A stretch of 64,000 nucleotides of DNA from positions 3,925 through 67,924 of the forward strand of contig CAINNF010000018.1 in assembly GCA_903851045.1 (NCBI GenBank), read 5' to 3'. Below are positions 2,963 through 64,000 of this stretch, piece after piece; the first letter of the stretch is position 1, and every line of letters begins with the position of its first letter. The notes under the pieces are model-generated. The model searched no databases, was not told the DNA's origin, and saw only the letters and a program-made list of their open reading frames with translations. The stretch comes from Candidatus Adlerbacteria bacterium. Its GTDB lineage: Bacteria > Patescibacteriota > Minisyncoccia > Phycocordibacterales > SBAW01. The translations under genes and the position numbers were made by a program.

Positions 2963-2988
2963 GTTGTAATAAGTATATACTCTACTGT

Positions 2989-5744: not shown

Positions 5745-6099
5745 ACCTTAAACGAACTGAATGGTTTTGAATGCAAATGCAATTCGAGCGACTTCTTGGA
5801 AAGTAACAGCTTTGCTTTTTCAAAACGATAAATTTCTTTTTCAATATCTTGGTCAAGATAACCATTAAGAAGTCGCTCTAACTTTTTCGACAAAGAAAAA
5901 ATCTTTTCTTCTTTGTCTTTCACACAAGCAATCAAAGACGGGGTGGAGTTTTTGTAGTCATCTAACGCCAAACGATTGAGTTCCTCCGACGGAAATGGTA
6001 AATATAAAAATGAGATTGAGTATAAGGGAGTTGAAAAATGTGTTATAATATTTCTAATAGTTGTATTACTAGAGTAAATCATATATGCCAGATTAAATT

Positions 6100-7587: not shown

Positions 7588-7791
7588 AAAGGATATTGCT
7601 ACTATATCCAAGTTAATTTTGATGGTTTGGTTTTGACTTTCTTGGTGCATACACACCGATTTTTTTTGCAAACCGCACAAATATTATTCGCTGACATATT
7701 GGTGGGTTTCACCACATCACCATTATTTTTTTTCTGTTCGTCACTCATATTGTTTAATTATTTTAAATAAGGGTAATGCCTAGATAAACGT

Positions 7792-21224: not shown

Positions 21225-22562
21225 ATGACCAAAAACAATCTCAAGATTGAGTACGTCCCTATCGACTCACTCCATCACGTGGAATACAACCCACGTATTA
21301 TCAACGACAGTACTAAAGCAGCCGTGCGGAAAAGCATCGAGATTCACGGGATGCAAGATCCGCTCATCGTAAACAATGCCCCCGAACGCATGGGCGGTAT
21401 CATCGGCGGCAACCTCCGCTATGAAGTGCTCAAGGACCTCGGATATACCGAGGTGCCAGTAGTCTTCGTTACCATCCCAGACATAGAGCGCGAAAAAGAT
21501 CTGTGTCTCAGGTTAAACCATGCAGTCGGAGAATGGAGCACTGATCTCCTCGCTGACTTCAGTGAAGCATTCCTCACAGATATTGGATTCTCTAGCGAGG
21601 AGATCGACAACATCTTCCCTGATGAAGATAATCCGACCCCGTTTGATCTCAAGAAGGAGTTGGAGAAACTCAACATCTCGAACATCTCTGTTAAAAAGGG
21701 TGACGTGTATGACCTCGATGGCTCCCGACTCATGTGTGGCGACTCAACCGTTGAGTCGGATATGCTCACACTCTTCGGTGAGTACCGAGCAGACATGTGC
21801 ATGACTGATCCTCCGTACATCCTCGACTATCTCCATGGGAAGAAACGTAACGGTAAAGCCACCGAAGGGTTCGGCCTCAGGCGTGACCGCAAATATCTCG
21901 AGACTGACGAATTGCCAGATAACTTCACCGACCTATGGATGGCGAATGTCGCAAAGATTCAGAAACCTGACTTTTCGATCATTGTGTACGAGAACCCCAA
22001 GAACCTGCGCACCATCTGGAACGCGCTTGAGGTGCACTGGAAGTATCGCAATACAATCGTTTGGACTATTCCGAACCGCGTGCAAAACTTCTCCGCTAAA
22101 TATAAGTTCTTCAACAAGCACGACATCGCGCTCGTGGGAACCTCGGGAGAGATTGCACTGCACACTGAGCCTGAAGATGAACCACTCTTCCAAAATGAGT
22201 ACGAGTCAGCGCTGTTTGCCACTGCGGGTAAGCCCCACTGGGAGTCGTATGGTAAAGACAAGAAGTACTGCCCAACTGACGTAATTGATCATATCGCTGC
22301 CGATGAGAAATCGTCGGGCCAAGGCATTATCTTCGGTACAAAACCCCTCCCGATACTCATTCCGTACATCAAGGTACTGACGAAGCGTGGAGATATTGTT
22401 GTTGAACCATTCGGCGGGAGTGGGTCGACTCTCATTGCCGCAAATACCATCGGACGTCGCTGCTTCCTCATGGAGAAAGTCCCGACCTATGCCGAGGTCA
22501 TCCTCAACCGCTGGGAAAAGTTCTCAGGCAAGAAGCGGGTGAAGATTCATGCACAAGCGTGA
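21225..22562 (+). CDS. ParB-like nuclease domain fused to N6-adenine/N4-cytosine DNA methyltransferase
   Basis: N-terminal ParB motif (EYNPRIIND..LIVNN..GNLRYEVLKDLGYTEVPVVFV); MTase motif IV DPPY (MCMTDPPYILDY) and motif I EPFGGSGST. Confidence 0.8.
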   Translation: MTKNNLKIEYVPIDSLHHVEYNPRIINDSTKAAVRKSIEIHGMQDPLIVNNAPERMGGIIGGNLRYEVLKDLGYTEVPVVFVTIPDIEREKDLCLRLNHAVGEWSTDLLADFSEAFLTDIGFSSEEIDNIFPDEDNPTPFDLKKELEKLNISNISVKKGDVYDLDGSRLMCGDSTVESDMLTLFGEYRADMCMTDPPYILDYLHGKKRNGKATEGFGLRRDRKYLETDELPDNFTDLWMANVAKIQKPDFSIIVYENPKNLRTIWNALEVHWKYRNTIVWTIPNRVQNFSAKYKFFNKHDIALVGTSGEIALHTEPEDEPLFQNEYESALFATAGKPHWESYGKDKKYCPTDVIDHIAADEKSSGQGIIFGTKPLPILIPYIKVLTKRGDIVVEPFGGSGSTLIAANTIGRRCFLMEKVPTYAEVILNRWEKFSGKKRVKIHAQA

Positions 22563-23869: not shown

Positions 23870-24251
23870 AAATTCTACTAGGATTTATACGGCAGAGCCC
23901 GATGAGGTAATCAAAAGGCTCCCAGCCATTGCGATAGCGCCTTTCGGCAACTACCCATACCCGTTTCCAGATATGACCTAGTAGAGTGACTCTGACTGGG
24001 AGTCCTTTGATCTCTACTAGGTTTTGCAACCATATCCTGAGAATTTGACTTCTTAGGGGTTAGGTCGGCTTGTATTCAATTGTTTGTACCAAGGGGTACA
24101 AGAACAATGATAACATTTTGAGTTATCACTTGGCCACCTTAGCTTAGCTTTGGAGGCTTGCGAAGGAGGTTACCAACAGAGATATGCGCCATCTCTGGCC
24201 TCAATTTGAGCTCACTAATCTATGCGAATGTTTTACTCCCACGAGTGAGTA

Positions 24252-28433: not shown

Positions 28434-28760
28434 ATTTTTATTTGTTAATACTGCTTGTAACTATCAGTTTTAGCAAAAGAGGCCCCTATTGGAGGTCTCT
28501 TTTGCAAAAGTTCATAGTGTTTTTTGTACCAATTGTTTTTGAGTAGAGAGTCGACGAACGCATGTGGGCCGTAAAGAGTATTGCTATCCAATCAAGCGAG
28601 TAAGTACCTAATTACAAACCGGCTTGGGGGTGCGACACTCGCGGGCAATATTGTAGTAACAATAAGTTCGCTCGAGTCCAACAGTTGCAAGTGGTTGATT
28701 ACTAGTAATGCCTCGACCTGCACTTACTACTACGCGAGCAAACAAAAATTCCTTTCAAAG

Positions 28761-30198: not shown

Positions 30199-31530
30199 AT
30201 GGAACAAATAGCAACAAGGCCCGGTTTGGGAGACACAAGGAGGCAACCCATAGCCCAGCCAGTACGAGTTAGATATTGCCTCTATGCAAGAAAGAGTACC
30301 GAGTCAGAAGAAAGACAGGTCCTTTCTATCGATTCGCAGATCAAGGAGATGCTCCAGTTGGCCGACCGTGAGGGGCTGGAGATAGTCGAATTGAAACGAG
30401 AGAGTCACTCGGCAAAAGAGACTGGGCAGCGACCTGTTTTTAACGAAATAGTAGATGAGCTAAAAGCTGGCAAATATAACGGCATACTCACGTGGGCACC
30501 AGATCGTATTAGCCGCAATGCTGGAGATCTTGGAAAGATAGTAGACCTGATGGATGCGGGGACACTTCAGGAAATACGTACTCATAGTCAAAGTTTTAGG
30601 AATAACCCCAACGAAAAGTTCCTTCTGATGATTCTCGGGTCGCAAGCGAAGCTCGAAAACGATAACCGAGGCGTAAATGTTAAGCGTGGGCTACGGACAC
30701 GCTGCGAAATGGGCCTTAGGCCGGGGGTTGCCCCAGTGGGATATTCAAATGAGAAACACGCCGACCGTAAATGTCACGCGGTTATCGACGAACTGCGCGC
30801 ACCCGTAATCAAGCAAATGTTTGAGAAAGTGGCGAACGAGCAATGGAGTGGCAGGAAATTGTACCAATGGCTGAAATTCGACCTCAACTTCAAAAGTAGG
30901 GCAAACAAAAACATGACGTTGAGTAGTGTCTACGTGGTACTTCAAAACCCCTTCTACTATGGCGTATTCGAGTATCCAGAAAAGAGCGGCAACTGGTACG
31001 ACGGCAAACATCAACCTCTTATCACCAAGGAGCTGTTCGATAAAGCGCAGGAGCAACTCAAACGAGACCGCATCCTGCGCTCCGATATTAAGGAGTTTGC
31101 CTTTATTAAGCTCATGTTATGTGGGGCTTGCGGCTCGGGCATTACAGCGGAGGAGAAGTTTAAGAAACTAAAGGACGGCACCTCAAACCGCTACGTGTAC
31201 TACGGCTGCACCCGTGCGAGGGACAAGGACTGCAAGAACGGTTACGTACGGGAGGAAGAGTTGATTACTCAGACGGTCAAAATTATGGACCACATCGACC
31301 TCAACAACATCAGCATGCGGGAAAAATTCGAGGCAGAGGTAGACCGTATGCGAAAGTTTCAACGCGCATTCACTGCCACGACAACGGATGCAAAACCGCA
31401 AAAAGAAATCGACCTGCGCGGCTACGCTAAGTATTTACTCAAGGAAGGGAGTGTGACGGAGAAGCGCGAGTTGCTGCTCTGTATTAAGAGCAAGTTGGTA
31501 CTCGACAAGGGAACTCTGAGATTGGAGTAG
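30199..31530 (+). CDS. large serine recombinase (resolvase/invertase N-domain + recombinase + zinc-ribbon)
   Basis: VRYCLYARKSTESEERQVLSIDSQ (catalytic Ser region), ...WAPDRISRN; C-terminal CGACGS...YYGCTRAR zinc ribbon. Confidence 0.85.
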   Translation: MEQIATRPGLGDTRRQPIAQPVRVRYCLYARKSTESEERQVLSIDSQIKEMLQLADREGLEIVELKRESHSAKETGQRPVFNEIVDELKAGKYNGILTWAPDRISRNAGDLGKIVDLMDAGTLQEIRTHSQSFRNNPNEKFLLMILGSQAKLENDNRGVNVKRGLRTRCEMGLRPGVAPVGYSNEKHADRKCHAVIDELRAPVIKQMFEKVANEQWSGRKLYQWLKFDLNFKSRANKNMTLSSVYVVLQNPFYYGVFEYPEKSGNWYDGKHQPLITKELFDKAQEQLKRDRILRSDIKEFAFIKLMLCGACGSGITAEEKFKKLKDGTSNRYVYYGCTRARDKDCKNGYVREEELITQTVKIMDHIDLNNISMREKFEAEVDRMRKFQRAFTATTTDAKPQKEIDLRGYAKYLLKEGSVTEKRELLLCIKSKLVLDKGTLRLE

Positions 31531-31534
31531 CGAT

Positions 31535-32776
31535 CTACTTTCCCTTAAGTCGATCCTTATACTTCTTCCTCTGTAACCCAAGGTGGTACTTATGAAAATC
31601 ATCACTATCGCACTCGTTCTCAATTGTCAGAGCTTGCATACACCGGCCTCGACGATATGGACCGAATAGTTTTGCAAATTCTCCCTGAAACCACTGGAGT
31701 GTGTCGTGCTCGCTACCCGCATTCGTTTCTTTGCTGAAATCAGGATCCCCCGGCAATCTTCCGTATTCGTCCATAGCCCCGCCAGTCCCGTCATTATTGC
31801 CCCACATTATCTCGCCGCCCCAATGAATCGCACGAGGGTCAGGCATGAGCAGGTATCCATGCCCGTAGATATTCCAGTCTGATTTAGAGACATGGCGCTC
31901 AGGATACAACCATTCTTCCCTTGCTGCAGCTAAGTAACGGGTCGCACGACTCTTTATGATGAAATTTATTTCACGAACCTCCTGCTCGGTAAGGTGGCGC
32001 AGAACTTGGACATCGGTGAACTTAAATATTGCATTGCGAAAAGGAAACGAATTGGGGCGCTCTTGCTTCGCAGATTGATATGGATTCCTTACCCATGAAA
32101 GGTTTGTGAGTATCAGTACTTTATCGATCGAGAGTGGAAAAATGGTGTGTGTCCCCTGGAGCCATATCTCGGGATCGTTTGAGTCGCGACACTGATGTGA
32201 TCGGGGTCCGCATTCTCGATTATATACAGTAACGGGGTGATCAGAGACAATAAACTTCGTCTCCGACTGAGAAGCGTCCGCAATGAGCCAGACACATTCC
32301 GTCCAAATGGCGGAATGAATATTACGCAATCGAATCATGGCGCGTAGAATCGCGTCCTTATCCTTGCTTCCGATTTTCTCACTTAAAAACGAGAGGCCTT
32401 TGGGAGTCCTGAGTTTCTGGGTACTCATATAGCGCAAGATGTCCTCAAGGGAAGTTCCCCAATCCTTTAGTGGGTAGCCAAATTTTTCAAAGTACTCGAC
32501 AGCGGGGCGACCTTTCGTGTCTATCTCGCCGAAAAAGTGTTTCTCAATGTCTTTCACTTCAATGCCTCGTATTTTTGTCGTATATAAATCTTCTTCGACG
32601 AAACACTTTTTGCTGCCTTGCCGTTTTACTGCCTTCCTAATATGACGTACACCGCGCGGATCAGTGAAAGTTTCTGGATTCAAATCCAACTGAAACAGTT
32701 CATGTTCGCCAGGTAGCATGAACTTCTTTTGGTACCACTGCGGTACGTAGTGGTGATTTCGGTATTCATCAGGCAT
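31535..32776 (-). CDS. DUF4238-family protein
   Basis: N-terminal HHYVPQWYQKKF matches the DUF4238 signature HY(I/V)PQFYL..F as I recall it. Confidence 0.45.
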   Translation of the reverse strand: MPDEYRNHHYVPQWYQKKFMLPGEHELFQLDLNPETFTDPRGVRHIRKAVKRQGSKKCFVEEDLYTTKIRGIEVKDIEKHFFGEIDTKGRPAVEYFEKFGYPLKDWGTSLEDILRYMSTQKLRTPKGLSFLSEKIGSKDKDAILRAMIRLRNIHSAIWTECVWLIADASQSETKFIVSDHPVTVYNRECGPRSHQCRDSNDPEIWLQGTHTIFPLSIDKVLILTNLSWVRNPYQSAKQERPNSFPFRNAIFKFTDVQVLRHLTEQEVREINFIIKSRATRYLAAAREEWLYPERHVSKSDWNIYGHGYLLMPDPRAIHWGGEIMWGNNDGTGGAMDEYGRLPGDPDFSKETNAGSEHDTLQWFQGEFAKLFGPYRRGRCMQALTIENECDSDDFHKYHLGLQRKKYKDRLKGK

Positions 32777-32907
32777 TCCTAAACATTACTCCTGCCAGCA
32801 AAAAAGTTCGAATCCGCTTAGGGTTCGAACTTTTTTGTCTTTACTCATTTTTTATAGCCCCTTGTTTTATAGGGCACGCGGTCGCGAGACACGCATGCCC
32901 GTTCCTG

Positions 32908-32992
32908 CGGAGGCGGAGAGATTCGAACTCTCGAACCCTTGCGGATTGCCGCCTTTCCAAGGCGGTGCACTCGACCACTATGCGACGCCTCC
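32908..32992 (-). tRNA. tRNA-Ser (GGA), type II
   Basis: Reverse complement GGAGGCG..., anticodon stem CCGCC/GGCGG, loop TTGGAAA, long variable arm, T-arm GAGAG-TTCGAAT-CTCTC, acceptor CGCCTCC. Confidence 0.8.
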
Positions 32993-42298: not shown

Positions 42299-42383
42299 AG
42301 TCACGTCTTATTCTAGTTTTTTGCAAAAAACTAGAATATATCAACACTGTTTTAGTGGCCAAAAAGTCTTTCGGCGAGATTTT

Positions 42384-51831: not shown

Positions 51832-52947
51832 ATGCCAGTAGAAACAGCAGAAAAGGTGCCAGCTTTAGCCTTGGGCGTATCGGTCATGACCGGTTTGTTC
51901 GAACAGGCACAAACACCCCCGAAAGAGGGTGATATTGTCGAGGGCCACGTGCTTGCGCTCGACCGTGCACGTTTATATATCGATCTTCCTCCGTTCGGTA
52001 CGGGTGTTATTTTTGGTCGTGAGTACATGAACGCGCGCGAGGTCATCAAGCGCGTGAACGTCGGCGACCTCGTCGCGGCAAAGGTCATCTCGACCACCGC
52101 CAAGGACGGCTATATCGAGCTTTCGCTCAAAGAGGCTCGCCAGGCTATCGTCTGGGCAGAGGCTGAAGAGGCGGTCAAGGGCAAGAAGCCGTTCGAACTC
52201 ACCGTCAAAGAGGCGAACAAGGGCGGACTTATCCTCGACTGGCAGGGCCTCATGGGCTTCCTCCCCGCATCCCAACTCAAACCCGAGCACTATCCTCGCG
52301 TCTCGGACGGCGACAAGGATCGTATCCTCGACGAATTGCGCAAGCTCGTTGGCACCAAGCTTACCGTCACCGTCATTTCGGCAACACCGAAGGAAGGCAA
52401 ACTTATCTTCTCTGAAAAAGGTCAGGACGATACCGGCAAGCGCGAGATCGTCGAACACTACCAGGTCGGCGACACGCTCGAGGGCGAAGTGACTGGCATG
52501 GTCGACTTCGGCGTCTTCGTCAAGATCGAGGACGGGCTTGAAGGTCTCGTCCATATCTCGGAGATCGACTGGGGACTCGTGGATGATCCTCGCCACTTCT
52601 TTAAGGTCGGCGACAAGGTAAAGGTCAAGGTCATCGACATCAAGGATGGCAAGATCTCGCTGTCGGTCAAGGCGCTTAAGGAGAACCCGTGGCAGTCCGC
52701 AGGAGATAAGTACAAGAAGGGCGATCGTGTCGAGGGTATCGTCATCAAGTTCAACAAGCACGGCGCACTCGCGTCGATCGAAGAGGGCATCGCGGGTCTC
52801 GTCCACATCTCCGAGTTCGGCTCGGAGGAGAAGCTGCGCCAGTCGCTCGAGCTCGGCAAGCGCTACCCGTTCACCATCTCGCTCTTCGACCCCAAGGAAA
52901 TGCGTATGGCGCTCACCTTTGGCACTCCGGTTGAAAAGAAGGTGTAG
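51832..52947 (+). CDS. rpsA: 30S ribosomal protein S1 (short, 4 S1 domains)
   Basis: Repeated S1-domain signatures (GDIVEGHV..., GDTLEGEVTGMVDFGVFVKI, GDRVEGIVIKFNKHGALASI). Confidence 0.85.
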   Translation: MPVETAEKVPALALGVSVMTGLFEQAQTPPKEGDIVEGHVLALDRARLYIDLPPFGTGVIFGREYMNAREVIKRVNVGDLVAAKVISTTAKDGYIELSLKEARQAIVWAEAEEAVKGKKPFELTVKEANKGGLILDWQGLMGFLPASQLKPEHYPRVSDGDKDRILDELRKLVGTKLTVTVISATPKEGKLIFSEKGQDDTGKREIVEHYQVGDTLEGEVTGMVDFGVFVKIEDGLEGLVHISEIDWGLVDDPRHFFKVGDKVKVKVIDIKDGKISLSVKALKENPWQSAGDKYKKGDRVEGIVIKFNKHGALASIEEGIAGLVHISEFGSEEKLRQSLELGKRYPFTISLFDPKEMRMALTFGTPVEKKV

Positions 52948-52956
52948 CCGTCGTTA

Positions 52957-53061
52957 CAGAACACAAGAAAAACACTTTGCAAATGGTCTGGAAGCCTACA
53001 GCGTCGCTCTGGACGCTGAGGCGGCCCGAGGACCTTTGCAAAGTGTTTTTCTTGTGTTCTG
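52957..53061. repeat. palindromic mini-element copy 1: 27-bp inverted arms (CAGAACACAAGAAAAACACTTTGCAAA/…) around conserved 51-nt core ATGGTCTGGAAGCCTACAGCGTCGCTCTGGACGCTGAGGCGGCCCGAGGACC
   Basis: Perfect long inverted repeat; core shared with 53704..53799; lies between convergent rpsA and pth. Confidence 0.65.
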
Positions 53062-53065
53062 TTCT

Positions 53066-53662
53066 CTATTGTTTCGAATGAATGACCATCGTCGCATGGT
53101 CGCGGCTTTCGTTCACTAACAGTTCGAGCGCTTCGGCGACCAGCTTCTTTACCTTTTTTAGTTTTTCTCCTTCGGTAGGTTTGAACGTACCGAGCACGAA
53201 GTCGACGACCTTCTCCGACTCTGGCTTTTTCGTCTTACCTGACGGTGTCGTGGGCGAGATGCCGATGCGGATACGAACGAAATCCTTCGTCTTGAGCGCC
53301 TTTTGAATAGAGTCGACGCCTCGGTGACCGCCCGCGGAGCTGCCGAACGACAACTTCACCCGCCCAAGAGGCATATCGAGCTCATCGTGGAGCACGACGA
53401 GATTCTCGGCGGCTTTTTTCGACTTCACGAGCGCGGTCAGCGCCTTGCCGGAATTGTTCATATAGGTGTCCGGTAGTACGAGTGCCACCTTTTTACCGAA
53501 CAGTTCTGCTTTCGCGGTCAGTGCATGCAGCTTCGCATCCTCTTTCCACTTTGCTACCCCTTCTTTCTCCGCAATCTCCAATAAGAAGTCGCGTCCGATG
53601 TTATGACGTGTGCCGTCATACTCGCCACCTGGGTTCCCAAGCCCTACGATCGTCCATTGCAT
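53066..53662 (-). CDS. pth: peptidyl-tRNA hydrolase
   Basis: MQWTIVGLGNPGGEYDGTRHNIGRDF...HDELD...GGHRGV motifs. Confidence 0.9.
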   Translation of the reverse strand: MQWTIVGLGNPGGEYDGTRHNIGRDFLLEIAEKEGVAKWKEDAKLHALTAKAELFGKKVALVLPDTYMNNSGKALTALVKSKKAAENLVVLHDELDMPLGRVKLSFGSSAGGHRGVDSIQKALKTKDFVRIRIGISPTTPSGKTKKPESEKVVDFVLGTFKPTEGEKLKKVKKLVAEALELLVNESRDHATMVIHSKQ

Positions 53663-53703
53663 GTCTTACAGCGTAGCATAAGAAGAAAAAATACAAAGTC
53701 TTT

Positions 53704-53799
53704 ACAAAAAAAATGAAAAACATTTTACAAATGGTCTGGAAGCCTACAGTGTCGCTCTGGACGCTGAGGCGGCCCGAGGACCTTTGTAAAATATTTTTC
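53704..53799. repeat. palindromic mini-element copy 2: arms ACAAAAAAAATGAAAAACATTTTACAAA/TTTGTAAAATATTTTTCATTTTTTTGT around the same core (one C>T)
   Basis: Arms differ from copy 1 but remain self-complementary (compensatory changes). Confidence 0.65.
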
Positions 53800-53865
53800 A
53801 TTTTTTTGTATATATATTTTTTGATAAAACTTGCGTTGTTCGAAAAGAAGAATACAATAACTTGC

Positions 53866-54423
53866 ATGCCTCAGGAGCACAGTGAGAATTTTTTCATTGA
53901 ACTCCTCAAGTTCGCTCTTCTCGCGTTATGCATCGTCATACCAGTGCGCTTGTTCGTCGCACAACCGTTCATCGTCTCCGGCGAATCGATGGTCCCCACG
54001 TTCCAGAACGGACAATATTTGATCGTGGACGAACTCACGTATCACTTCGAAGTACCGAAACGCGGCGATGTCATCGTCTTTCGCTATCCGAAGGACCCGT
54101 CGCAGTTCTTTATCAAGCGCATCGTTGGTTTGCCAGGCGACGTCGTGCACGTGTCCGACACCGGCGTCACGGTCACACATACCGACGGGACCACTATCAC
54201 GGTCGACGAGTCCTATGTCGTGAACCACGGCAACGGCGGCACGCACGACTACACGATCCCTGCACAGGACTACTTCGTCATGGGAGACAATCGTCCAGAG
54301 AGTTCCGATTCGCGAGCATGGGGTTTCCTGCCGCGCGGCAACATGGTCGGACGAGTCTTGTTGAGAGTGCTACCGTTCCAAACCCTTGGTCTCTTCCCGG
54401 GAAGTATATCCGAGCCGCAATAA
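53866..54423 (+). CDS. lepB: signal peptidase I
   Basis: Start moved to MPQEHS (53866) because the listed ORF reads through the palindromic element. SGESMVPTF (catalytic Ser), ...KRIVGLPGD..., GDNRPESSDSR. Confidence 0.8.
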   Translation: MPQEHSENFFIELLKFALLALCIVIPVRLFVAQPFIVSGESMVPTFQNGQYLIVDELTYHFEVPKRGDVIVFRYPKDPSQFFIKRIVGLPGDVVHVSDTGVTVTHTDGTTITVDESYVVNHGNGGTHDYTIPAQDYFVMGDNRPESSDSRAWGFLPRGNMVGRVLLRVLPFQTLGLFPGSISEPQ

Positions 54424-54442
54424 ATAATAACAATCACATCAT

Positions 54443-55591
54443 ATGAGCGCATCTCAACGGCTTTCACCCGCATCGTTCGTTCGTCACGCGTCGGACGTCT
54501 CCGCTTTTTACGGGTTTCGACCGATACACGAGGTCGAAAAAGGCCTTGCCGGTAGGCGCTCGCGCTCTTTGCATACCTTCCAAACGAGCATCGAGTCGTG
54601 CACGCAACGGTTTATACAGCAGAAACGGAGCGAGCCGGTCTTGGCGTACTACGCGAGTGCCGCACCGCTCCACACTCCGACCGGGATCTCTGCGCGAGAC
54701 GTTGGTGAGTTCGGACTCCATGTGGTCGGCACGACCGAGAGTCTCGGCGAGATCATTTTGCTCAAAACATTATTCTCGATCGTGACCGAGTGGGGCGCTC
54801 GAGTCTCGCGCGTGCGCGTGAACGCGCTTGGCGACCGCGACTCGAAGTCTCGCTTCGAGCGAGAACTGACCGGATATCTGCGCAAGCATGCACACCTACT
54901 CGACCCCGTTTGTCGCAAAGCGGTCGGTGAAAGCCCGTTGACGACGTACGGATGCACCAACGATGCCTGTCGAGATGTACTAGGTGACGGACCGCGATCC
55001 ATGAACTTTTTGTCCGAGAAGAGTCGCGAGCATTTTCGCGAAGTGCTGGAGTATATCGAGAGTCTGGGTCTCCCCTACGAGGTAGATGACCTGTTGGTCG
55101 GAGATACGCGAGAACCGAGCATAACCTTCGCGCTCGACCTCGATGAGCCGGATGCGACGATCGTCAGCGGTGTCGGGGGACGCTTTGACGAATACGTACG
55201 AAAGCTGAACGCGCGCAAAGACGGCGCCGGCGCCTCAGCGAGTATCTTTTTCCGAAAGAAGGGGTTGGTGCGGTCCGCCTTCGTACCGTCCGCATCCCAG
55301 CGCGCCCCAAAGATATACTTCGTGCAGCTTGGACTGCGCGCGAAATTGCAGAGTCTCTCGGTGGTCGACATGCTTCGAGCGGCTCAGGTGCCGGTCTCGC
55401 AGTCCTTCGACGCACGGAGTCTCGCTCCCCAGATGGAGTCTGCCCGAGCACAGGGTGTCTCCCATCTTCTCATCATGGGCCAACGAGAGGCGATCGACGG
55501 CACCATCATCGTACGTTCGATGCTCAACAGCTCTCAAACGACCGTCCCGATCGCCATCCTCCCCCGCTACCTCAAGACACTGAAGGTTTAG
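54443..55591 (+). CDS. histidyl-tRNA synthetase-like class II aaRS paralog (HisRS/HisZ family, probably non-catalytic)
   Basis: Class-II-like body and C-terminal anticodon-binding-like domain (IYFVQLG...LLIMGQREAIDGTIIVRSM) but no clear motif 2/3. Confidence 0.45.
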   Translation: MSASQRLSPASFVRHASDVSAFYGFRPIHEVEKGLAGRRSRSLHTFQTSIESCTQRFIQQKRSEPVLAYYASAAPLHTPTGISARDVGEFGLHVVGTTESLGEIILLKTLFSIVTEWGARVSRVRVNALGDRDSKSRFERELTGYLRKHAHLLDPVCRKAVGESPLTTYGCTNDACRDVLGDGPRSMNFLSEKSREHFREVLEYIESLGLPYEVDDLLVGDTREPSITFALDLDEPDATIVSGVGGRFDEYVRKLNARKDGAGASASIFFRKKGLVRSAFVPSASQRAPKIYFVQLGLRAKLQSLSVVDMLRAAQVPVSQSFDARSLAPQMESARAQGVSHLLIMGQREAIDGTIIVRSMLNSSQTTVPIAILPRYLKTLKV

Positions 55592-55686
55592 CAGGCACAT
55601 TGACTTGTTTTTAATGGTGTAGTATAAACAAATCCGGATACGGTCTTGCGTTATCTTGTATATAATACAAAAAAGGAAACGGATCG

Positions 55687-56040
55687 GTGAAACCATCGAA
55701 GAGAGTGTTACTCGCCGAGGAAGCGAAGCGGGTTACGAGAGAACTTGTCGCGCTTGGGCTGGACGCGGACATGCTCTCGGTCATGACCCAGAAGGTCCGT
55801 CGCGTTCTTGGTGGTGTACTCGACCACGAACTTAAACAGCTGGATACGCTCGACCCTCGTCATAGAGCGAAAGTGAGGGCGGATGTGTTGGAGGCTATCG
55901 AAGACTCCCTCGGTAAAGCAGCGAGTGGCTCTCTGAAGAGCTATGCTCGGCAATTCCAGGTCGCCGCGAGTGGATGTGAGACCACCGAGGGTAGGGGTGC
56001 TCTCTTGGGTATCGCCAACGCCATGAGTGCAGCTATCTAG
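55687..56040 (+). CDS. hypothetical protein (117 aa)
   Basis: ORF only. Confidence 0.35.
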   Translation: MKPSKRVLLAEEAKRVTRELVALGLDADMLSVMTQKVRRVLGGVLDHELKQLDTLDPRHRAKVRADVLEAIEDSLGKAASGSLKSYARQFQVAASGCETTEGRGALLGIANAMSAAI

Positions 56041-56132
56041 CACGTTTTTTCCAGACTTCTCGACCAAAGGGGCCAGTACGAAAAATACCACCGTACTGGC
56101 CCTTCGCTGTAAGTTGCACCCAGTGTAGGGGT

Positions 56133-56405
56133 GTGGTAGTATCTTTTTACATGGCTATAAATGCAGAAGTGACGAAAAACGAGGCCGAAACACCGGTCAA
56201 TCTTATACGACGATTCTCCAAGCGCGTTCAGGGAACCGGGCTTATCCAGCGTATGCGCTCACGCCGCTACCAGGTCCGTATCAAGTCTGGTAACGTCCGC
56301 CGCAAGCAGACATTGAAGGTTATCAAGCGCCGAGAAGAGGTTGCCGAGCTCATCAAGCTTGGCAAGATGCTCGAGCGCACGACCCGTGGCCCTCGCCGAC
56401 GCTAA
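56133..56405 (+). CDS. rpsU: 30S ribosomal protein bS21 (putative)
   Basis: VNLIRRFSKRVQGTGLIQRMRSRRYQVR resembles S21 core ALRRFKR..K.G....R.R..Y.KP; basic tail; precedes ybeY. Confidence 0.5.
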   Translation: MVVSFYMAINAEVTKNEAETPVNLIRRFSKRVQGTGLIQRMRSRRYQVRIKSGNVRRKQTLKVIKRREEVAELIKLGKMLERTTRGPRRR

Positions 56406-56414
56406 CAACACTCC

Positions 56415-56765
56415 TTGGATACGCTGTTTGAACAGATTAAGACCTTTGTGCTCGGAAAGCGATATGACTTGTCAGTCGCTTTTTTGAGTTCTTCGAAGAT
56501 GCGTGAGGTGACCAAGAAGGCCAAAGGCACGGACAAGGCGAGTAACGTACTGGCGTTCCCACTCTCCAAGACGTCAGGTGAGGTCCTCATCTGCAAGGCG
56601 ACCGCACGAAAAGAGGCGAAGGATTTTGGTATGACCCCCGACACTTTTATCGCCTATTTGTTTATCCACGGTGTATTGCACTTAAAAGGCTTCGATCATA
56701 GTGCTACAATGGAGCACGAAGAGCGCCGAGTCATGCGGCGATTTGATCTTCGTCGTAATGAGTAA
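56415..56765 (+). CDS. ybeY: rRNA maturation endoribonuclease YbeY
   Basis: HGVLHLKGFDH metal-binding motif (H3xH5xH). Confidence 0.8.
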   Translation: MDTLFEQIKTFVLGKRYDLSVAFLSSSKMREVTKKAKGTDKASNVLAFPLSKTSGEVLICKATARKEAKDFGMTPDTFIAYLFIHGVLHLKGFDHSATMEHEERRVMRRFDLRRNE

Positions 56766-57936
56766 AGTAGTCACAGGAATCGATATAGGCACCTACCACG
56801 TCAAAGTGGTCATCGCTGAGCTCGCCGACGATCCTCGGCAGCCTCCGCGTATTCTTGGTAGTGGATATGCCGAGAGCCGGGGACTGAAACAGGGGTATGT
56901 CATTTCTATTGAGGAAACGTCTCGGTCGGTCGCCGCTGCGGTGGCCCAAGCGAGCCGAGCTGCACGGGTGCCCGTAAAGCGTGCGTACGTATCGTTGGGT
57001 GGTGTTGGACTCGATGAGGCGTTCGCCCGGGGTGAGACCGTGGTCGAGCGCGGTGACTCCGAAGTGACCGAGCGCGATGTCCCACGTGCTATAGCCGCCA
57101 GCGAGAAAGCGCTCGCACCTTCGGCCACCCTCAACAGGAAGATCATCCATACCATCCCGCTACGCTTTACCGTCGACGGCGTGACCGTCATGGGCGGCAA
57201 TCCGATCGGCATGAAGGGTATGCGCATCTCGGTCGAAACACTTTTCATAACATGCGTCGAACGTCATGTGCGCGACCTGGTAGAGGCGGTCGAACATGCC
57301 GGGGTCGAGGTGGAGGACCTGGTCGCCTCCCCTATCGCAGCAAGTTTCGTCGCGACGACGAAGATGCAGAAACGCGTCGGCTGTTTGCTCGCCAACATCG
57401 GCTCTGAAACACTCTCTATGGTCGTGTTCGAGGACACGAAACCGGTCTCGCTCAAGGTGTTCCCCGTCGGCGGCAGCGACATCACTAACGACCTCGCGCT
57501 CGCGCTCCGTATCTCTCCTGAAGAGGCTGAACAGCTAAAGTCGGGCGCAGTACTCGCCACCACCTACCCGAAGAAAAAAGTGGACGACATCATCAACCGT
57601 CGGCTCGTCGAGATGTTCAAGCTCATAGAGGCGCACCTCAAACGCATCGGCAAGAACGAACTACTGCCCGCGGGTGCCCTACTCACCGGTGGAGGATCAT
57701 CGCTTCATGCTGCTGCGGACGTCGCCAAACTGGTCCTGAAACTCCCCGCACGCATCGCGAGCCTGTCGGACAGTAACGCGACGAAGATGCAGCTCGGCGA
57801 CGGCATCTGGTCGGTCGCGTACGGACTCACGGTATGGGGTTTTACCTCTGGCGAGGGTATCGAGCGTCCCGACGCCAGCAATTTCGCCGACACCTTCAAA
57901 TTGTTCTGGCGCTGGCTCAAAAAATTCTTTCCATAA
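56758..57936 (+). CDS. ftsA: cell division protein FtsA
   Basis: ATG 56758 overlaps the ybeY stop; actin-like fold motifs VVTGIDIGTYHVKVV...; immediately upstream of ftsZ. Confidence 0.8.
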   Translation: MSKVVTGIDIGTYHVKVVIAELADDPRQPPRILGSGYAESRGLKQGYVISIEETSRSVAAAVAQASRAARVPVKRAYVSLGGVGLDEAFARGETVVERGDSEVTERDVPRAIAASEKALAPSATLNRKIIHTIPLRFTVDGVTVMGGNPIGMKGMRISVETLFITCVERHVRDLVEAVEHAGVEVEDLVASPIAASFVATTKMQKRVGCLLANIGSETLSMVVFEDTKPVSLKVFPVGGSDITNDLALALRISPEEAEQLKSGAVLATTYPKKKVDDIINRRLVEMFKLIEAHLKRIGKNELLPAGALLTGGGSSLHAAADVAKLVLKLPARIASLSDSNATKMQLGDGIWSVAYGLTVWGFTSGEGIERPDASNFADTFKLFWRWLKKFFP

Positions 57937-58005
57937 ACACCAGCTAATAGAAGAAAAAGCTTGTCAAAGTTTGCAAAGCACTTCGACGGTGGTAGAGTGT
58001 GGGGC

Positions 58006-59238
58006 ATGCCGCAAGTACAACCAGAAATTGAAGCGTTCGCTCGTATTCGTGTCGTCGGAGTCGGAGGCTCCGGTGGTAACGCCATCAATCACATGATGGA
58101 GAACAAGATGCGTGGCGTCGACTTCGTCGCTATTAACACCGACGCTCAAGACCTCCACAATTCGCTCGCAAAGAAGAAGATCCATATTGGCAAGAACCTC
58201 ACTCGTGGCCTCGGTGCCGGCATGAACCCTGACCTTGGCAAGCGTGCCGCGGAAGAGACCAAAGAAGAGATACAGCAGTCGATGAAGGGTTCGGACATGG
58301 TCTTCATCGCCTGCGGTATGGGCGGCGGCACCGGCACCGGTGCAGCTCCTATCGTCGCCAAGACCGCCAAAGAGCTCGGTGCACTCACCGTCGCGGTCGT
58401 CACCAAGCCGTTCTCGTTCGAAGGCCAACAGCGTATGCGACTCGCCGAGCAGGGCCTTGAGGACCTGCGCAAAGAGGTCGACGCGCTCATCATCATCCCG
58501 AATGACCGTATTCTTGCGACCGTCGCGAAGGATACGACACTCAAGAATGCCTTCGCTATGTGCGACGACATCCTCAAGCAGGCGGTCGAGGGTATCTCTG
58601 ACCTGATCACCCACCCCGGCATCATCAACGTCGACTTCGCCGATATTCGCGCGGTCATGGAGAACGCTGGCTCGGCACTCATGGGTATCGGTATCGCGTC
58701 CGGCGAGAATCGTGCACAGGTCGCCGCTAAGGCTGCCGTCTCCTCACCCCTGCTCGAACTATCGATCAATGGTGCGAAAGGGGTACTCTTCGCTATCGCA
58801 GGAGGTGACGACCTCGGCATGATCGAGGTACACGAAGCGGCCAAGATTGTGACCGAGTCCGTGGACCCGAACGCGAAGATCATCTTCGGAGCAATCAAAG
58901 ACGAGAAGCTCAAGAAGAACGATGTGCGCGTCACCGTTATCGCGACCGGCTTCCCAACCGCGGCACAGAACGCACAGGCGCAGCGAGGCACGCCACTCTT
59001 TACCTTCGGACGCGACCAGAAAGAAGCTGATGTCCCTCCGGTTGGCACCATCGGCAAGATATTCAACTCACCGACCCCGCCTCCGGTCGCACCGACTCCC
59101 ATAGTCATTCGCGAACCAGAGACTCCAAAGGTCACGACGCCCGTCGTCGAGGTCGAAGTCAAAGCAAAGAAGGACGAGGACGAGGACGATGAGTGGGGCG
59201 CGGTACCATCCTTCCTTCGCCGACCAAAAATTAAATAA
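58006..59238 (+). CDS. ftsZ: cell division GTPase FtsZ
   Basis: Listed ORF starts at TTG 57961; preferred start ATG 58006 (MPQVQPEIEAF). GGGTGTG signature, NTDAQ. Confidence 0.95.
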   Translation: MPQVQPEIEAFARIRVVGVGGSGGNAINHMMENKMRGVDFVAINTDAQDLHNSLAKKKIHIGKNLTRGLGAGMNPDLGKRAAEETKEEIQQSMKGSDMVFIACGMGGGTGTGAAPIVAKTAKELGALTVAVVTKPFSFEGQQRMRLAEQGLEDLRKEVDALIIIPNDRILATVAKDTTLKNAFAMCDDILKQAVEGISDLITHPGIINVDFADIRAVMENAGSALMGIGIASGENRAQVAAKAAVSSPLLELSINGAKGVLFAIAGGDDLGMIEVHEAAKIVTESVDPNAKIIFGAIKDEKLKKNDVRVTVIATGFPTAAQNAQAQRGTPLFTFGRDQKEADVPPVGTIGKIFNSPTPPPVAPTPIVIREPETPKVTTPVVEVEVKAKKDEDEDDEWGAVPSFLRRPKIK

Positions 59239-59255
59239 AGCGGTATACTGTCCTC

Positions 59256-60188
59256 ATGAGTTACGATCTAGCGATTATTGGCGGCGGGCCGGCGGGTGTT
59301 GCTGCGGGAGTGTATGCTGCTCGCAAGCGTCTGAAAACAGTGTTTATCGCCGAGGCCATTGGCGGTCAAAGCATCGACTCGACTGGGATAGAGAACTGGA
59401 TCGGCACCGAGAAGATCTCGGGACTGGACTTGGCTAAGTCGCTCGAGCGACACCTGCGCGCCTACGCGGGCGACATTGTCGATCTGCGGATTGGCGAACG
59501 TGCGAATACGGTCACTAAGGCGAGCCAAGGATTCGCGGTCACGACGACCAAAGGCTCGTATGACGCCAAGACGGTGCTCGTCGTGACCGGAGGCTCGCGC
59601 CGCAAGCTCACCATCCCCGGCGCGGCAGAGTTCGAGAACAAGGGTGTCACCTACTGCGCATCGTGCGACGGCCCGCTCTTCGCGGGCCAGGATGTCGTCG
59701 TCGTCGGTAGCGGTAACGCGGGCTTTGAGAGCGCCGCCCAACTTCTCGCCTATACCAAGTCGGTCACGCTTCTCAACCGGAGTGCCGATTTCAAAAAAGC
59801 GGACGCATCGACCGTGAGCGCGGTTCTTGCACATCCGAACATGACCGCACTTTCGAACACGATACCTGTCGAGATCAAAGGAAACGGCTTTGTGAGCAGC
59901 GTTGTCATCCAAAATTCTGTCACGAACGAGACGAAAGAGATCCCCGCCGCGGGCGTCTTTGTGGAAATCGGCATGGTGCCCGCAACCGACTTTGTCAAAG
60001 ACCTTGTAGAGCGCGACCCGTGGGGCAAGGTTAAGGTAGATGGCAAGAGCCAGCGCACCTCACAGCCGGGCATCTGGTCTGCCGGAGACTGCTCCGACGC
60101 GCTGTATCATCAAAACAACATCGCCGCAGGCGACGCCGTCAAGGCGCTTGAGGACATCTATTTGTATATAAAATCGCTCCCTGCCTAG
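59256..60188 (+). CDS. trxB: thioredoxin-disulfide reductase
   Basis: IIGGGPAGVAAGVYAAR FAD motif; redox CASCDG; VVVVGSGNAGFESA NADPH motif. Confidence 0.85.
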   Translation: MSYDLAIIGGGPAGVAAGVYAARKRLKTVFIAEAIGGQSIDSTGIENWIGTEKISGLDLAKSLERHLRAYAGDIVDLRIGERANTVTKASQGFAVTTTKGSYDAKTVLVVTGGSRRKLTIPGAAEFENKGVTYCASCDGPLFAGQDVVVVGSGNAGFESAAQLLAYTKSVTLLNRSADFKKADASTVSAVLAHPNMTALSNTIPVEIKGNGFVSSVVIQNSVTNETKEIPAAGVFVEIGMVPATDFVKDLVERDPWGKVKVDGKSQRTSQPGIWSAGDCSDALYHQNNIAAGDAVKALEDIYLYIKSLPA

Positions 60189-63387: not shown

Positions 63388-64000
63388 ATGAGGGTTCTAG
63401 CGATCGAAACCAGCTGCGACGAGACTGGCGTCTCTATACTTGAGGGCACCCAAACGGGCGAGGCGATGCGTTTTACGGTGCTCGGCACCGCACTCCTCTC
63501 TCAAGCAGCCCTCCACGCGCCCTACGGCGGTGTATACCCCAATCTCGCCAAGCGCGAACATGAGAAGAATCTCCCGGTCATTTTGGAGCAAGCAACAAGA
63601 GCGGCTGGAGAAGCTTGCACGGGGTCCATCGAAACCACCTCAGAAAAAAAGTCCTCGGGTCTCCCGTCCAGGCCGGATGCCGGCCAGGCGGGCCAGACTA
63701 TTTTTTCTGAGGTGGTTTCGACGTTCCAGCGATTATCGATCGACGCGATAGCGGTCACGAGCGGCCCAGGACTCGAACCGGCACTTTGGACCGGGATCAC
63801 CTTCGCGAAGCGACTCGCTAAAGAGACCGGACTGCCGCTGATGGGTGTCAATCATATGGAAGGACATCTTATCTCCTCCCTCGCCCGTCAAAGCCTCGGC
63901 AACGACGGGACTCATTCTCACATTCTTGAGAATGGTGGAGTGACAAGATGTGAGATTCGTGATGTGCGGTTTCCCGTCCTTGGACTTCTGATCTCGGGTG
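63388..64000 (+). CDS. tsaD: tRNA N6-adenosine threonylcarbamoyltransferase TsaD (Kae1/Gcp), 3'-truncated at window edge
   Basis: MRVLAIETSCDETGVSI..., AVTSGPGLEPALWTGITFAKRLA...GVNHMEGH; manual translation, no stop inside the window. Confidence 0.85.
   Translation, partial: MRVLAIETSCDETGVSILEGTQTGEAMRFTVLGTALLSQAALHAPYGGVYPNLAKREHEKNLPVILEQATRAAGEACTGSIETTSEKKSSGLPSRPDAGQAGQTIFSEVVSTFQRLSIDAIAVTSGPGLEPALWTGITFAKRLAKETGLPLMGVNHMEGHLISSLARQSLGNDGTHSHILENGGVTRCEIRDVRFPVLGLLISG

Follow-up and report, generated by a model that had tools for sequence, protein, structure and literature searches.

A palindromic repeat family of CPR bacteria with a common core and locus-specific complementary arms

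Two elements flanking pth and a third inside tsaD belong to a palindromic repeat family of ultra-small CPR bacteria that is apparently undescribed so far. All three copies lie in the window, by which we mean the whole 64,000-nucleotide stretch of DNA analyzed. About 100 more were found elsewhere, in line with the palindromic element family suggested in a preliminary description of this DNA. What loci share by recent ancestry is the core, alone or together with the inner 10 to 17 nt of the arms; the outer arms are locus-specific yet mutually complementary. We consider it probable that these are selfish DNA repeats of the RPE/REP type, the core of which is copied or converted between loci via a single-stranded form.

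Copy 1 (positions 52956-53062, plus strand) lies between the convergent genes rpsA (51832-52947, plus strand) and pth (53066-53662, minus strand) and fills the 118-bp gap between their stop codons. Copy 2 (53707-53807, plus strand) lies in the divergent spacer between pth and lepB (plus strand), 59 nt upstream of the lepB ATG at 53866. Both sites and the three genes are placed as first described. In copy 1, a 5′ arm (ACAGAACACAAGAAAAACACTTTGCAAA; 52956..52983, plus strand) and a 3′ arm that is its perfect complement (53035..53062, plus strand) enclose a core (52984..53034, plus strand) that reads T-G-GTCTGG ... CC-CGA-GGAC-C, carries the apical hairpin CAGCGTC/GACGCTG, and belongs to the “AAGCC...GGCGG” subfamily. 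The core of copy 2 (53732..53782, plus strand) is identical to it at 50 of 51 positions; its 5′ arm (53707..53731, plus strand) reaches 53703 if one indel is allowed, and its 3′ arm (53783..53807, plus strand) can be extended to 53810. The claim that both sites share a 51-nt core was borne out: the core occurs exactly twice on the plus strand of the window, with one C/T difference, and was never seen in 100 dinucleotide shuffles. The distance between the arms is exactly 51 nt in both copies.

The arms of the two copies had been described as perfectly self-complementary, which is true of the 28-nt arms of copy 1 (100%) and not of the 25-nt arms of copy 2 (96%; ∼28 nt if one indel is allowed). 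Compensatory changes, also proposed at that stage, are evident, as 5 of the 6 differences among the 28 arm positions are altered on both arms. The sixth is a C.A opposition on the plus strand, equivalent to G.U on the minus strand. The inner 17 nt of the copy 1 5′ arm are homologous to copy 2, and the outer 11 nt are probably locus-specific. The fold of copy 1 has a free energy of −72.3 kcal/mol (z = −13.4); that of copy 2 was −40.8 kcal/mol (z = −8.0) within the originally drawn boundaries, which leave its right arm incomplete. The listed lepB open reading frame (53713-54423) has its start within copy 2. Homologues begin at MPQE, corresponding to the ATG at 53866, and the read-through of copy 2 is therefore an artefact of the ORF caller, as had been suspected.

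The third copy (63629-63721, minus strand), overlooked until now, lies in frame inside tsaD, 10 kb from copies 1 and 2. Its low-coordinate arm (63629..63649, minus strand), which on the core strand corresponds to the 3′ arm, reads TCGAAACCACCTCAGAAAAAA on the plus strand and encodes IETTSEK in tsaD. The core (63650..63700, minus strand) belongs to the main subfamily and reads TAGTCTGGCCCG...CGGGAGACCCGAGGACT on the minus strand; it is antisense to tsaD, and the translation there is KSSGLPSRPDAGQAGQTI. The high-coordinate arm spans 63701..63721 (minus strand). These 21-bp arms are unrelated to those of copies 1 and 2 and are again exactly 51 nt apart. The element is 93 nt long, equal to 31 in-frame codons of tsaD (start at 63388), and these 31 residues are missing from 12 homologous TsaD proteins. 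In the AlphaFold model of TsaD, residues 81 to 97 have a pLDDT of <50. The TsaD of the window also carries a second extra segment. With a covariance model, copy 3 scored 70.8 bits, copy 1 scored 55.2 bits, and copy 2 scored 53.9 bits; the next-best match in the window reached 12.5 bits.

How widespread is the family? Using the search pattern GTCTGG N25-55 CGAGGAC, made from the conserved core ends, we obtained 3 matches in the window versus 0.04 expected. A genome scan returned 41 loci. All but one lay in CPR MAGs, giving 40 copies in 23 CPR/Patescibacteria species genomes, and the single outlier had no arms. A metagenome scan added 59 loci, and viral contigs searched with the core pattern contained no copy. 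As far as sampled, the family is confined to Parcubacteria/Paceibacteria-type CPR bacteria. One locus with two inverted copies (L060) was left out, as its contig is itself a large inverted duplication and probably an assembly artefact. Three contigs of the same species (L001 to L003) were identical at both sites and therefore provide no polymorphism. Covariance model scores were sharply bimodal, and few copies in the DNA sampled were half decayed. Since every copy was found by a pattern demanding intact core ends, the conservation of these ends and the well-formedness of the copies are partly a matter of ascertainment. Extrapolating from the 3 copies in the 64-kb window and 5 in ∼55 kb of unbiased flanking loci, the density is about 1 element per 15 to 20 kb.

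A search of the literature for such an element in CPR/Patescibacteria returned nothing. The suggestion of an RNA structure family found no backing in Rfam, in which no family matched at the gathering score; E values of up to 10 gave only spurious miRNA-type matches, owing to the long A/U stem. Pfam and NCBIfam recognized no family in the peptides encoded by the elements. Rfam analysis of ten “non-genic” loci spoke against the elements being part of rRNA or other RNA genes, with only tRNAs detected, elsewhere in the loci. Compared by eye, the elements did not fit twister, pistol, hammerhead, HDV-like, or K-turn motifs, nor Y RNA, archaeal bulge-helix-bulge introns, or integron attC sites.

Neither interpretation first offered for the pair around pth was supported as it stood. 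A bidirectional terminator is contradicted by a promoter and terminator consensus scan, which returned nothing at the elements, and by the many copies that are read through within ORFs; an intrinsic terminator would have a G+C-rich stem of modest length leading directly into a U-run, and the scan called none at copy 1 or copy 2. A classical MITE should have conserved terminal inverted repeats common to all copies, and here the outer arms are locus-specific, being unrelated even where the cores are identical. Among the called genes, which cover nearly all of the window, Pfam analysis detected no Y1 transposase, and no transposase that could be a partner, reverse transcriptase, or HUH nuclease was found there or linked to the family. 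By eye, the flanks showed no target-site duplication; TA stands on both sides of copy 2 and not of copies 1 and 3.

Across the family, elements measure 81 to 107 bp, with locus-specific arms of mostly 18 to 28 bp. On the core strand, a purine-rich G-R-A flank comes first and the locus-specific arm next, often followed by a small purine-purine internal loop. An A-run clamp and an unpaired T lead into the core, beyond which a T-run clamp precedes the complementary arm and a G-R-A-G flank. This flank preference follows the orientation of the core, and only in some copies are both sides alike. In the invariant part of the core (GTCTGG...CC-CGA-GGAC), R-GUCUGG pairs with CC-(CGA bulge)-GGAC-Y, including one invariant U.G pair. 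Above this helix follow a second small helix, which has a 3′ AGA or GG bulge, and then a variable, covarying apical hairpin. The closing R-Y pair was A-U in 72 cases, G-C in 28, and G-U in 1; A-C never occurred, though the pattern permitted any R/Y combination.

Paired cells made up 93.8% versus 80.6% in shuffles, and the covariation score was 0.359 versus 0.119, a value reached by 0 of 500 shuffles. Of 20 arm positions, 16.7 paired with the opposite arm of the same element and 9.1 with an arm taken from another element. The quality of the arms was not correlated with a proxy for the age of the core, so that there is no sign of arm decay with age; this steadiness fits maintenance in place as well as repeated recopying. 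The fold is also strand specific, in that one strand carries the stabilizing G.U and G.A oppositions. Noncanonical oppositions on the core strand were G.T in 92 cases versus A.C in 12 and purine-purine in 118 versus pyrimidine-pyrimidine in 10, and in 86 of 96 elements the core strand was more stable than its complement. The asymmetry of oppositions was present in both orientations relative to the host gene.

About half of the copies are intragenic, and others lie in intergenic spacers. The host genes, named from their translations, include LepA, IleS, PolA, RecJ, Dus, MutY, ParB, and TsaD, and the same genes recur in the genome and metagenome sets. Many of them serve replication and repair. 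Beyond conserved core genes of small genomes, no particular gene class is preferred. In all 39 in-gene copies that could be assessed by tblastn, the reading frame was kept and stop-free. The orientation was sense in 14 and antisense in 25, with several entry and exit frames, and genic copies had on average 4.0 stop-free frames of 6 versus 2.2 of 6 in the others. Being frame-preserving and stop-free, the in-gene copies would appear to be translated as loops of ∼30 residues.

We then compared loci with one another. Core interiors were at least 90% identical in 48 pairs, and the arms were unrelated in 27 of these. Identity between core interiors at loci with unrelated arms rose to 100% and stopped at the clamp. 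Two loci (L018 and L053) had the same arms and different core subfamilies. Presence and orientation also vary: among LepA proteins 87 to 92% identical to the LepA query from L042, the element was in minus orientation, in plus orientation, or absent. Decayed and partly deleted versions exist, among them decayed copies in LepA. In the closest pair of a filled and an empty site (L045 and L047), flanks 98% identical enclosed a wholesale linker replacement rather than a simple insertion. Three comparisons of empty and filled LepA sites, none of them clean, hinted that the 5′ arm was preexisting host sequence. Further apparent presence/absence differences in the 20-kb syntenic loci L045, L047, and L049 were discarded; differences in protein length reflected start-codon calls, and other indels were small unrelated hairpins.

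Set beside this turnover is a record of constancy. The intergenic site and orientation were constant between pth and lepB in four of four genomes (that of copy 2 and those of L013, L014, and L102) and upstream of atpF in five of five (the fifth being L016). In orthologous pairs, the core had diverged by 2 to 8% versus 6 to 16% for the flanks, and of the changes in the arms, 3 were double, 4 produced wobble pairs, and none was disruptive.

From these observations we infer how the family spreads. It would spread, or be homogenized, through a single-stranded core strand, either as ssDNA at the replication fork or as an element-specific intermediate, which a trans-acting enzyme may recognize at the invariant bulged helix. 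Copying would proceed by ectopic template switching or gene conversion, and the invariant segments GTCTGG and CCGAGGAC or the A/T clamp would supply the breakpoints. Fold-back (self-templated) synthesis could restore the hairpin stem or maintain its symmetry, as could selection for pairing. Of the copies in the window, copy 2 would occupy an old site, common to other genomes, copy 1 would be a recent local copy of its inner module, and copy 3 would be an independent member inside tsaD. A bolder version, to which we give rather little credence, is that the core is a new mobile bulged hairpin of ∼50 nt that is copied single-stranded and gains its stem by fold-back copying of host DNA, or else a domesticated genome-wide single-strand signal. 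The fold-back stem would then be an inverted target duplication instead of a direct one, and if this were true, a mobile core could insert in frame into the surface loops that essential genes encode throughout a whole class of CPR bacteria.

Could the element instead serve the host? The constant intergenic sites, the slow core, and the pair-keeping arm changes are also expected of a host-useful structured element. As RNA or ssDNA, the core strand might be bound at the invariant bulged helix by a cellular protein and serve as a site for RNase III-type processing or for stability, mark transcript boundaries between convergent or divergent genes, or act as a replication or segregation signal, with the in-gene copies as tolerated by-products. 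An invariant U.G pair and bulges beside freely covarying helices are features of functional RNAs, the core evolves more slowly than flanking coding DNA, the arm changes keep the pairing of the core strand, and the bimodal scores with few half-decayed copies point the same way. However, about half of the copies lie in unrelated conserved genes, in both orientations and without a link to a particular gene class beyond that noted above; it is the core strand whose fold is conserved, including where this strand is antisense to the mRNA; presence, absence, and orientation vary among close relatives; and LepA holds decayed copies. Moreover, the elements have no terminator or promoter consensus and no Rfam family, and a common site and orientation may be plain inheritance. 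We regard a host function as unlikely, though it deserves more weight than the explanations that follow.

Hairpin-generating template-switch errors, in genomes that accumulate coding palindromes, might also produce such structures without mobility or recognition. Other small in-frame palindromes without a core occur at similar sites: TsaD site 2 of L045, the LepA linker of L052, a 21-nt palindrome inserted within a core in L049, and the second extra segment in the TsaD of the window. Such errors, however, cannot account for one 47- to 60-nt core, with identity of up to 100%, recurring at dozens of unrelated loci in many species, and they leave the invariant asymmetric motif unexplained. The shared core contradicts template switching as the sole explanation, which we consider very improbable; the arms could still be formed by template switching.

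More doubtful still is that the inserted residues are absent from the proteins through intron-like removal from RNA or ribosome bypass. In yeast mitochondria, mobile GC-rich hairpins are bypassed by ribosomes, and a very stable hairpin here joins the two ends of the insert. With removal or bypass, neither length nor stop codons would be constrained; however, all 39 of the assessed in-gene copies are in frame and stop-free, and genic copies have more open frames than the others. Finally, a local duplication around pth without any family, which copies 1 and 2 might suggest by lying 750 bp apart with the core and inner 17 nt of the arms in common, is refuted by the third copy with other arms 10 kb away, by the ∼100 copies in other genomes, by the unrelated flanks beyond the arms (68 of 108 positions different), and by the filled pth/lepB site in three genomes that lack the rpsA/pth copy; the tandem duplication including the pth flanks that the preliminary description had named as its refuting case falls with it.

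CPR bacteria have genomes of ∼1 Mb that are regarded as highly streamlined. In-gene elements of the selfish repeat family that we favor would add ∼30 residues to proteins such as those of tsaD, lepA, ileS, polA, recJ, and parB, and elements create false start sites and ORF extensions, of which lepB is an example here. Recognizing the family should improve the annotation of CPR MAGs and account for length variation of CPR core proteins. After Rickettsia, it would be the second example, and an independent one, of “protein-coding palindromes,” and it poses a tractable puzzle: a conserved, strand-specific bulged hairpin is swapped among loci separately from its stem, and no enzyme is known for this.

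Among the closest known systems are the Rickettsia palindromic elements (RPEs), which lie in intergenic DNA and also in frame within conserved protein genes, being both translated and tolerated there (PMC2229807). Both systems are dispersed repeats with long stem-loops in a reduced genome (100 to 150 bp for RPEs, 81 to 107 bp here), both insert in frame in conserved genes, and neither has a known transposase. The likeness is one of architecture, no relation in sequence being expected, and since the host belongs to another phylum, CPR/Patescibacteria, the family is an analogue of the RPEs and not a member. Furthermore, a whole RPE has a family consensus, whereas here only the central core does and the outer arms are locus-specific. 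To our knowledge, neither a strand-specific G.U/G.A pattern nor core exchange between loci has been described for RPEs. REPs and REPINs with their RAYTs (IS200/IS605-type Y1 transposases) are short imperfect palindromes recognized as ssDNA, with a conserved unpaired tag (GTAG or CGTC) beside the stem and a cognate Y1 transposase gene in the genome that the repeats often flank. REP dimers are in some cases embedded in longer palindromes and in genes, and the core ends T-R-GTC and GAC-Y recall the CGTC/TGTC tags, although they are paired here and not free. In contrast to REPs, no RAYT or other Y1 transposase gene was found close to the three window copies, and the CPR elements form single hairpins whose long stem is locus-specific rather than singlets or doublets with conserved stems. 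They are intragenic in about half of the cases. Replication and repair genes have been noted as hosts of intragenic REPs (PMC3733652), a tendency shared by the CPR family. MITEs (Correia/NEMIS, ERIC, RUP, and YPAL) are likewise small, non-autonomous stem-loops that can be co-transcribed and can form in-frame ORF fusions; they have conserved, IS-matching terminal inverted repeats and usually a TA or other direct duplication, whereas the termini of the CPR elements vary. Lastly, mitochondrial genes of Nematomorpha carry long, near-perfect inverted repeats in coding sequence, with protein function and a stringent secondary structure both kept (PMC6649704). Those repeats have no common core, and both arms encode conserved protein, whereas in the CPR family the whole element is an extra loop with a family-specific core.

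The sequence around pth proved to be as the preliminary description gave it, and the repeat found there is real: the core pattern has two matches in the window and none in shuffles. Copy 1 (52956-53062, + strand) consists of ACAGAACACAAGAAAAACACTTTGCAAA, a 51-nt core, and TTTGCAAAGTGTTTTTCTTGTGTTCTGT. Copy 2 (53707-53807, +) consists of AAAAAAATGAAAAACATTTTACAAA, the core, and TTTGTAAAATATTTTTCATTTTTTT, and, if one indel is allowed, reaches 53703-53810. By the repeat finder, the arms of copy 1 span 28 nt and are 100% complementary, those of copy 2 span 25 nt and are 96% complementary, and the spacing is exactly 51 nt in both copies. The fold of copy 1 (-72.3 kcal/mol) lies 13 standard deviations under shuffles. 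As described earlier, copy 1 lies between the convergent genes rpsA(+) and pth(-), and copy 2 between pth(-) and lepB(+), which point away from each other. The open reading frame (ORF) at 53713-54423 begins within copy 2, and LepB homologues begin at MPQE (ATG 53866); the apparent read-through of copy 2 by lepB is therefore an artefact, as had been suspected. The reported covariation of the arms was borne out, with copies 1 and 2 differing at 6 of 28 arm positions, 5 of them altered in both arms. The two copies have in common 15 of the 17 inner arm positions and 50 of the 51 core positions. Their outer 11 arm positions are identical at 7 of 11, in A-rich sequence where relatedness is not demonstrable, and their flanks likewise show no demonstrable relatedness.

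A third copy was located within tsaD (start 63388), at 63629-63721 (-). The same repeat scan gave perfect 21-bp arms (TCGAAACCACCTCAGAAAAAA), which show no relation to the arms of the first two copies and again enclose exactly 51 nt; on the - strand the centre starts TAGTCTGG and ends CCCGAGGACT. The loose pattern GTCTGG-N25-55-CGAGGAC matches at copies 1, 2, and 3 and nowhere else in the window, with 0.04 matches expected. The 93 nt of copy 3 are read through as 31 codons with no stop. These 31 residues are missing from all 12 TsaD homologues compared (67-77% identity over aligned parts), and an AlphaFold model of TsaD has pLDDT values of <50 at element residues 81-97, with a confidently modelled helix on one side and a confidently modelled strand on the other. 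The cumulative GC skew falls from +0.18 at 28 kb to a minimum (-0.14) at 52000-60000 and then rises. This weak minimum might mark a replication origin, which, if true, bears on how copies 1 and 2 are oriented with respect to copy 3.

Features common to the three copies were combined into a family pattern (AAAT-R-GTCTGG, a gap of 29-39 nt, and CCCGAGGAC-Y-TT). A search of 185,579 species genomes with this pattern revealed 41 loci, against about 3 expected by chance (our own estimate, not computed by a tool). All but one (40/41) lie in 23 metagenome-assembled genomes (MAGs) of ultra-small bacteria of the Patescibacteria type (CPR), labelled Kaiser-, Adler- or Nomurabacteria, Paceibacterota, Parcubacteria, or Patescibacteria, some under a generic "Saccharibacteria" TPA label; the sole outlier, in Roseibium, has no arms. 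A metagenome collection yielded 59 further loci, and the viral contigs searched with the pattern held no copy. No Rfam family matches the element, and we found no description of it in CPR in the literature. With the window copies and four loci retrieved in the course of different comparisons, the scans gave 97 non-redundant elements, whose arms are mostly 18-28 bp long. In the first 20 arm positions, 16.7 Watson-Crick pairs form with the own partner versus 9.1 with the arm of another element. A covariance model built on 44 copies scored the window copies at 70.8, 55.2, and 53.9 bits and everything else in the window at ≤12.5. Among 101 distinct sequences, 93.8% of cells are paired versus 80.6% in shuffles, and the covariation score is 0.359 versus 0.119 shuffled (0/500 shuffles reach 0.359; slid controls, maximum 0.138). 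The closing pair is A-U in 72, G-C in 28, and G-U in 1, the search pattern having permitted every R/Y combination. The U.G pair beside the CGA bulge is invariant (101/101) in a set whose every copy was ascertained via intact core ends. One whole contig (L060, 4854 nt) is a large inverted duplication in which the same genes and element occur twice, at 1620-1674(+) and 3189-3243(-). We left this contig out of the statistics as a probable assembly artefact seeded at a hairpin.

Cores and arms are not coupled. Core interiors are ≥90% identical in 48 element pairs, in 27 of which the arms are unrelated, and side-by-side alignments place the end of identity at the A/T clamp. Such pairs occur within single MAGs (def with polA, L019 and L034; a holB-like gene with mnmA, L006 and L007). 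Conversely, two LepA copies from one 90% cluster (L018 and L053) have homologous arms with compensatory differences and different core subfamilies. Since the members of some paralogous pairs also agree in the innermost 10-17 nt of their arms, the unit of shared ancestry is the core plus a variable length of inner stem, and the outer stem is produced or maintained at each locus.

Host genes were assigned by eye from translations, with no database search. Long open frames run through elements in conserved genes, namely those for RecJ, IleS, LepA, PolA, Dus, MnmA, ParB, MutY-like glycosylase, HolB-like and VirD4-like proteins, UvrC (with two elements in a single gene), ArgS, Def, and TsaD. Recurring hosts in the metagenome set are HolB-like proteins and ComF (5 each) and Dus, LepA, MutY, PolA, and VirD4-like proteins (4 each). 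The core strand is sense in 14 copies and antisense in 25. Elements are entered and left in several different reading frames (NSLA/NGLE/IVWP...; VLGSP/SSGLP...RPDYF/GQTIF/ARPF), indicating that conservation lies in the nucleotides and not in the peptide; no Pfam or NCBIfam model matched the element peptides. Between genes, the rpsA/pth position of copy 1 is filled in the window only. The pth/lepB spacer is filled in the window (copy 2) and in L013, L014, and L102, with the core strand always lepB-sense, and the spacer upstream of atpF is filled in five genomes, always antisense to atpF. A host function seems to us rather unlikely overall, and is most plausible for copies that keep their place between genes, among them copy 2 ahead of lepB. 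Removal at the RNA level is contradicted by the single frame kept through the element in all 39 copies alignable to another host protein and by the extra stop-free frames of genic copies (4.0 of 6, versus 2.2 of 6 in the remaining copies).

Turnover was apparent in LepA, for which the 120 homologues closest to the protein of one carrier were compared. The majority contain a linker of 8 residues where the element inserts, and about 25 have an element in "+" or "-" orientation or its decayed remains. Three proteins 87-92% identical to the query (the L042 protein) carry a "-" element (P0121), a "+" element (P0123), and no element (P0124); the flanks of the last two are 98% identical. One cluster member has lost 15 element residues, and at the DNA level this site in L049 has a truncated "+" copy beside an intact "-" copy. 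In the L052 linker (within 1501-3339), the same hot spot holds an in-frame coreless hairpin (AAGACACAGC-GTTTTCCCGAGAAAAAT-GCTGTGTCTT) that may be either a remnant or some palindrome of other origin.

The TsaD site occupied by copy 3 ("-") is filled in the "+" orientation in L045 and L049. In L049 (17780-17870) and L050 (19058-19148), a 21-nt perfect palindrome (containing GCCTGCCGGCAGGC) is inserted in frame within the core, at its CCGAGGAC end, and the covariance-model score drops to 24 bits; in L045 this interruption is absent. At a second TsaD site, L045 (~17570-17650) has another in-frame palindrome without the family core (GCGAAGATGCAGA, 23 nt, TCTGCATCTTCGC) where L049 has a family element. 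The window tsaD also has a second extra segment of ~19 residues (~63880-63960, +; SLGNDGTHSHILENGGVTR...), missing from TsaD homologues. The DNA of this segment includes a small hairpin (CATTCTCA-6 nt-TGAGAATG), and the segment is possibly a further in-frame "coding palindrome" that lacks the family core.

With arms defined by Watson-Crick pairs only and read on the core strand, we counted 92 G.T and 12 A.C oppositions, and 118 purine-purine and 10 pyrimidine-pyrimidine oppositions. In 86/96 elements the fold of the core strand is more stable than that of its complement (mean difference, 5.7 kcal/mol). Many non-canonical oppositions are fixed traits of the family: a loop of GA or GAA/GGA lying five pairs away from the core, fixed U.G pairs in the "...YRGAAAAA / TTTTTCTGGG..." subfamily, and a G-R-A / G-R-A-G flank at the stem foot. 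In a small sample of orthologous pairs (ParB and LepA), divergence was 6-16% in flanks versus 2-8% in the core, and arm changes comprised 3 double changes, 4 to wobble pairs, and none that broke a pair. Because the strand bias is present in both orientations relative to the host gene, the conserved fold is generally not that of the host mRNA. It is a property of one DNA strand or its transcript.

Several other features were recorded in the window. Two palindromes have no family core: a perfect 30-bp one at 42309-42338 (TATTCTAGTTTTTTGCAAAAAACTAGAATA) and, at 28460-28518, an imperfect inverted repeat of 25 nt around a 9-nt loop. The sole non-tRNA Rfam match is a LOOT RNA at 23933-24066 (-), which scores 72.5 bits against a gathering score of 46.4. 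A large serine recombinase (Resolvase/Recombinase/Zn_ribbon; 30199-31530), a DUF4238 protein (31535-32776), the adjoining tRNA gene (32908-32992, -; region 30199-32992), and a ParB_N-N6_N4 methyltransferase fusion (21225-22562) look like an integrated mobile element. G+C is 0.34 at 6001-8000 versus ~0.53 elsewhere, and the ORFs of 495 and 323 residues there have no Pfam match.

These data describe a widespread CPR repeat family whose hairpin core is conserved, asymmetric, and bulged and whose stems are specific to each locus. Its elements are inserted in frame within essential genes, relatives differ by gain, loss, flipping, and core exchange, and conservation is bound to one strand. This goes beyond a pair of terminators, and the purely local duplication that the preliminary description had named as its refutation is contradicted by the tsaD copy, the copies in other genomes, and the pth/lepB site elsewhere. 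We favor the reading that the family is selfish DNA. Its core would be copied or converted from locus to locus, with breakpoints in the invariant core ends, and its stem would be rebuilt through fold-back synthesis or preserved by selection. No enzyme linked to the family was found by Pfam on called genes covering nearly all of the window, no target duplication was seen by eye in flank listings, and no clean empty/filled pair was obtained among the compared loci. In-frame palindromic repeats are an already known kind, within which this architecture, with its conserved centre and variable ends, is unusual. At the level of genome biology, the Rickettsia palindromic elements have the same look. 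REP-type elements are also alike: they are recognised as folded single strands and sometimes lie inside longer palindromes and replication/repair genes.
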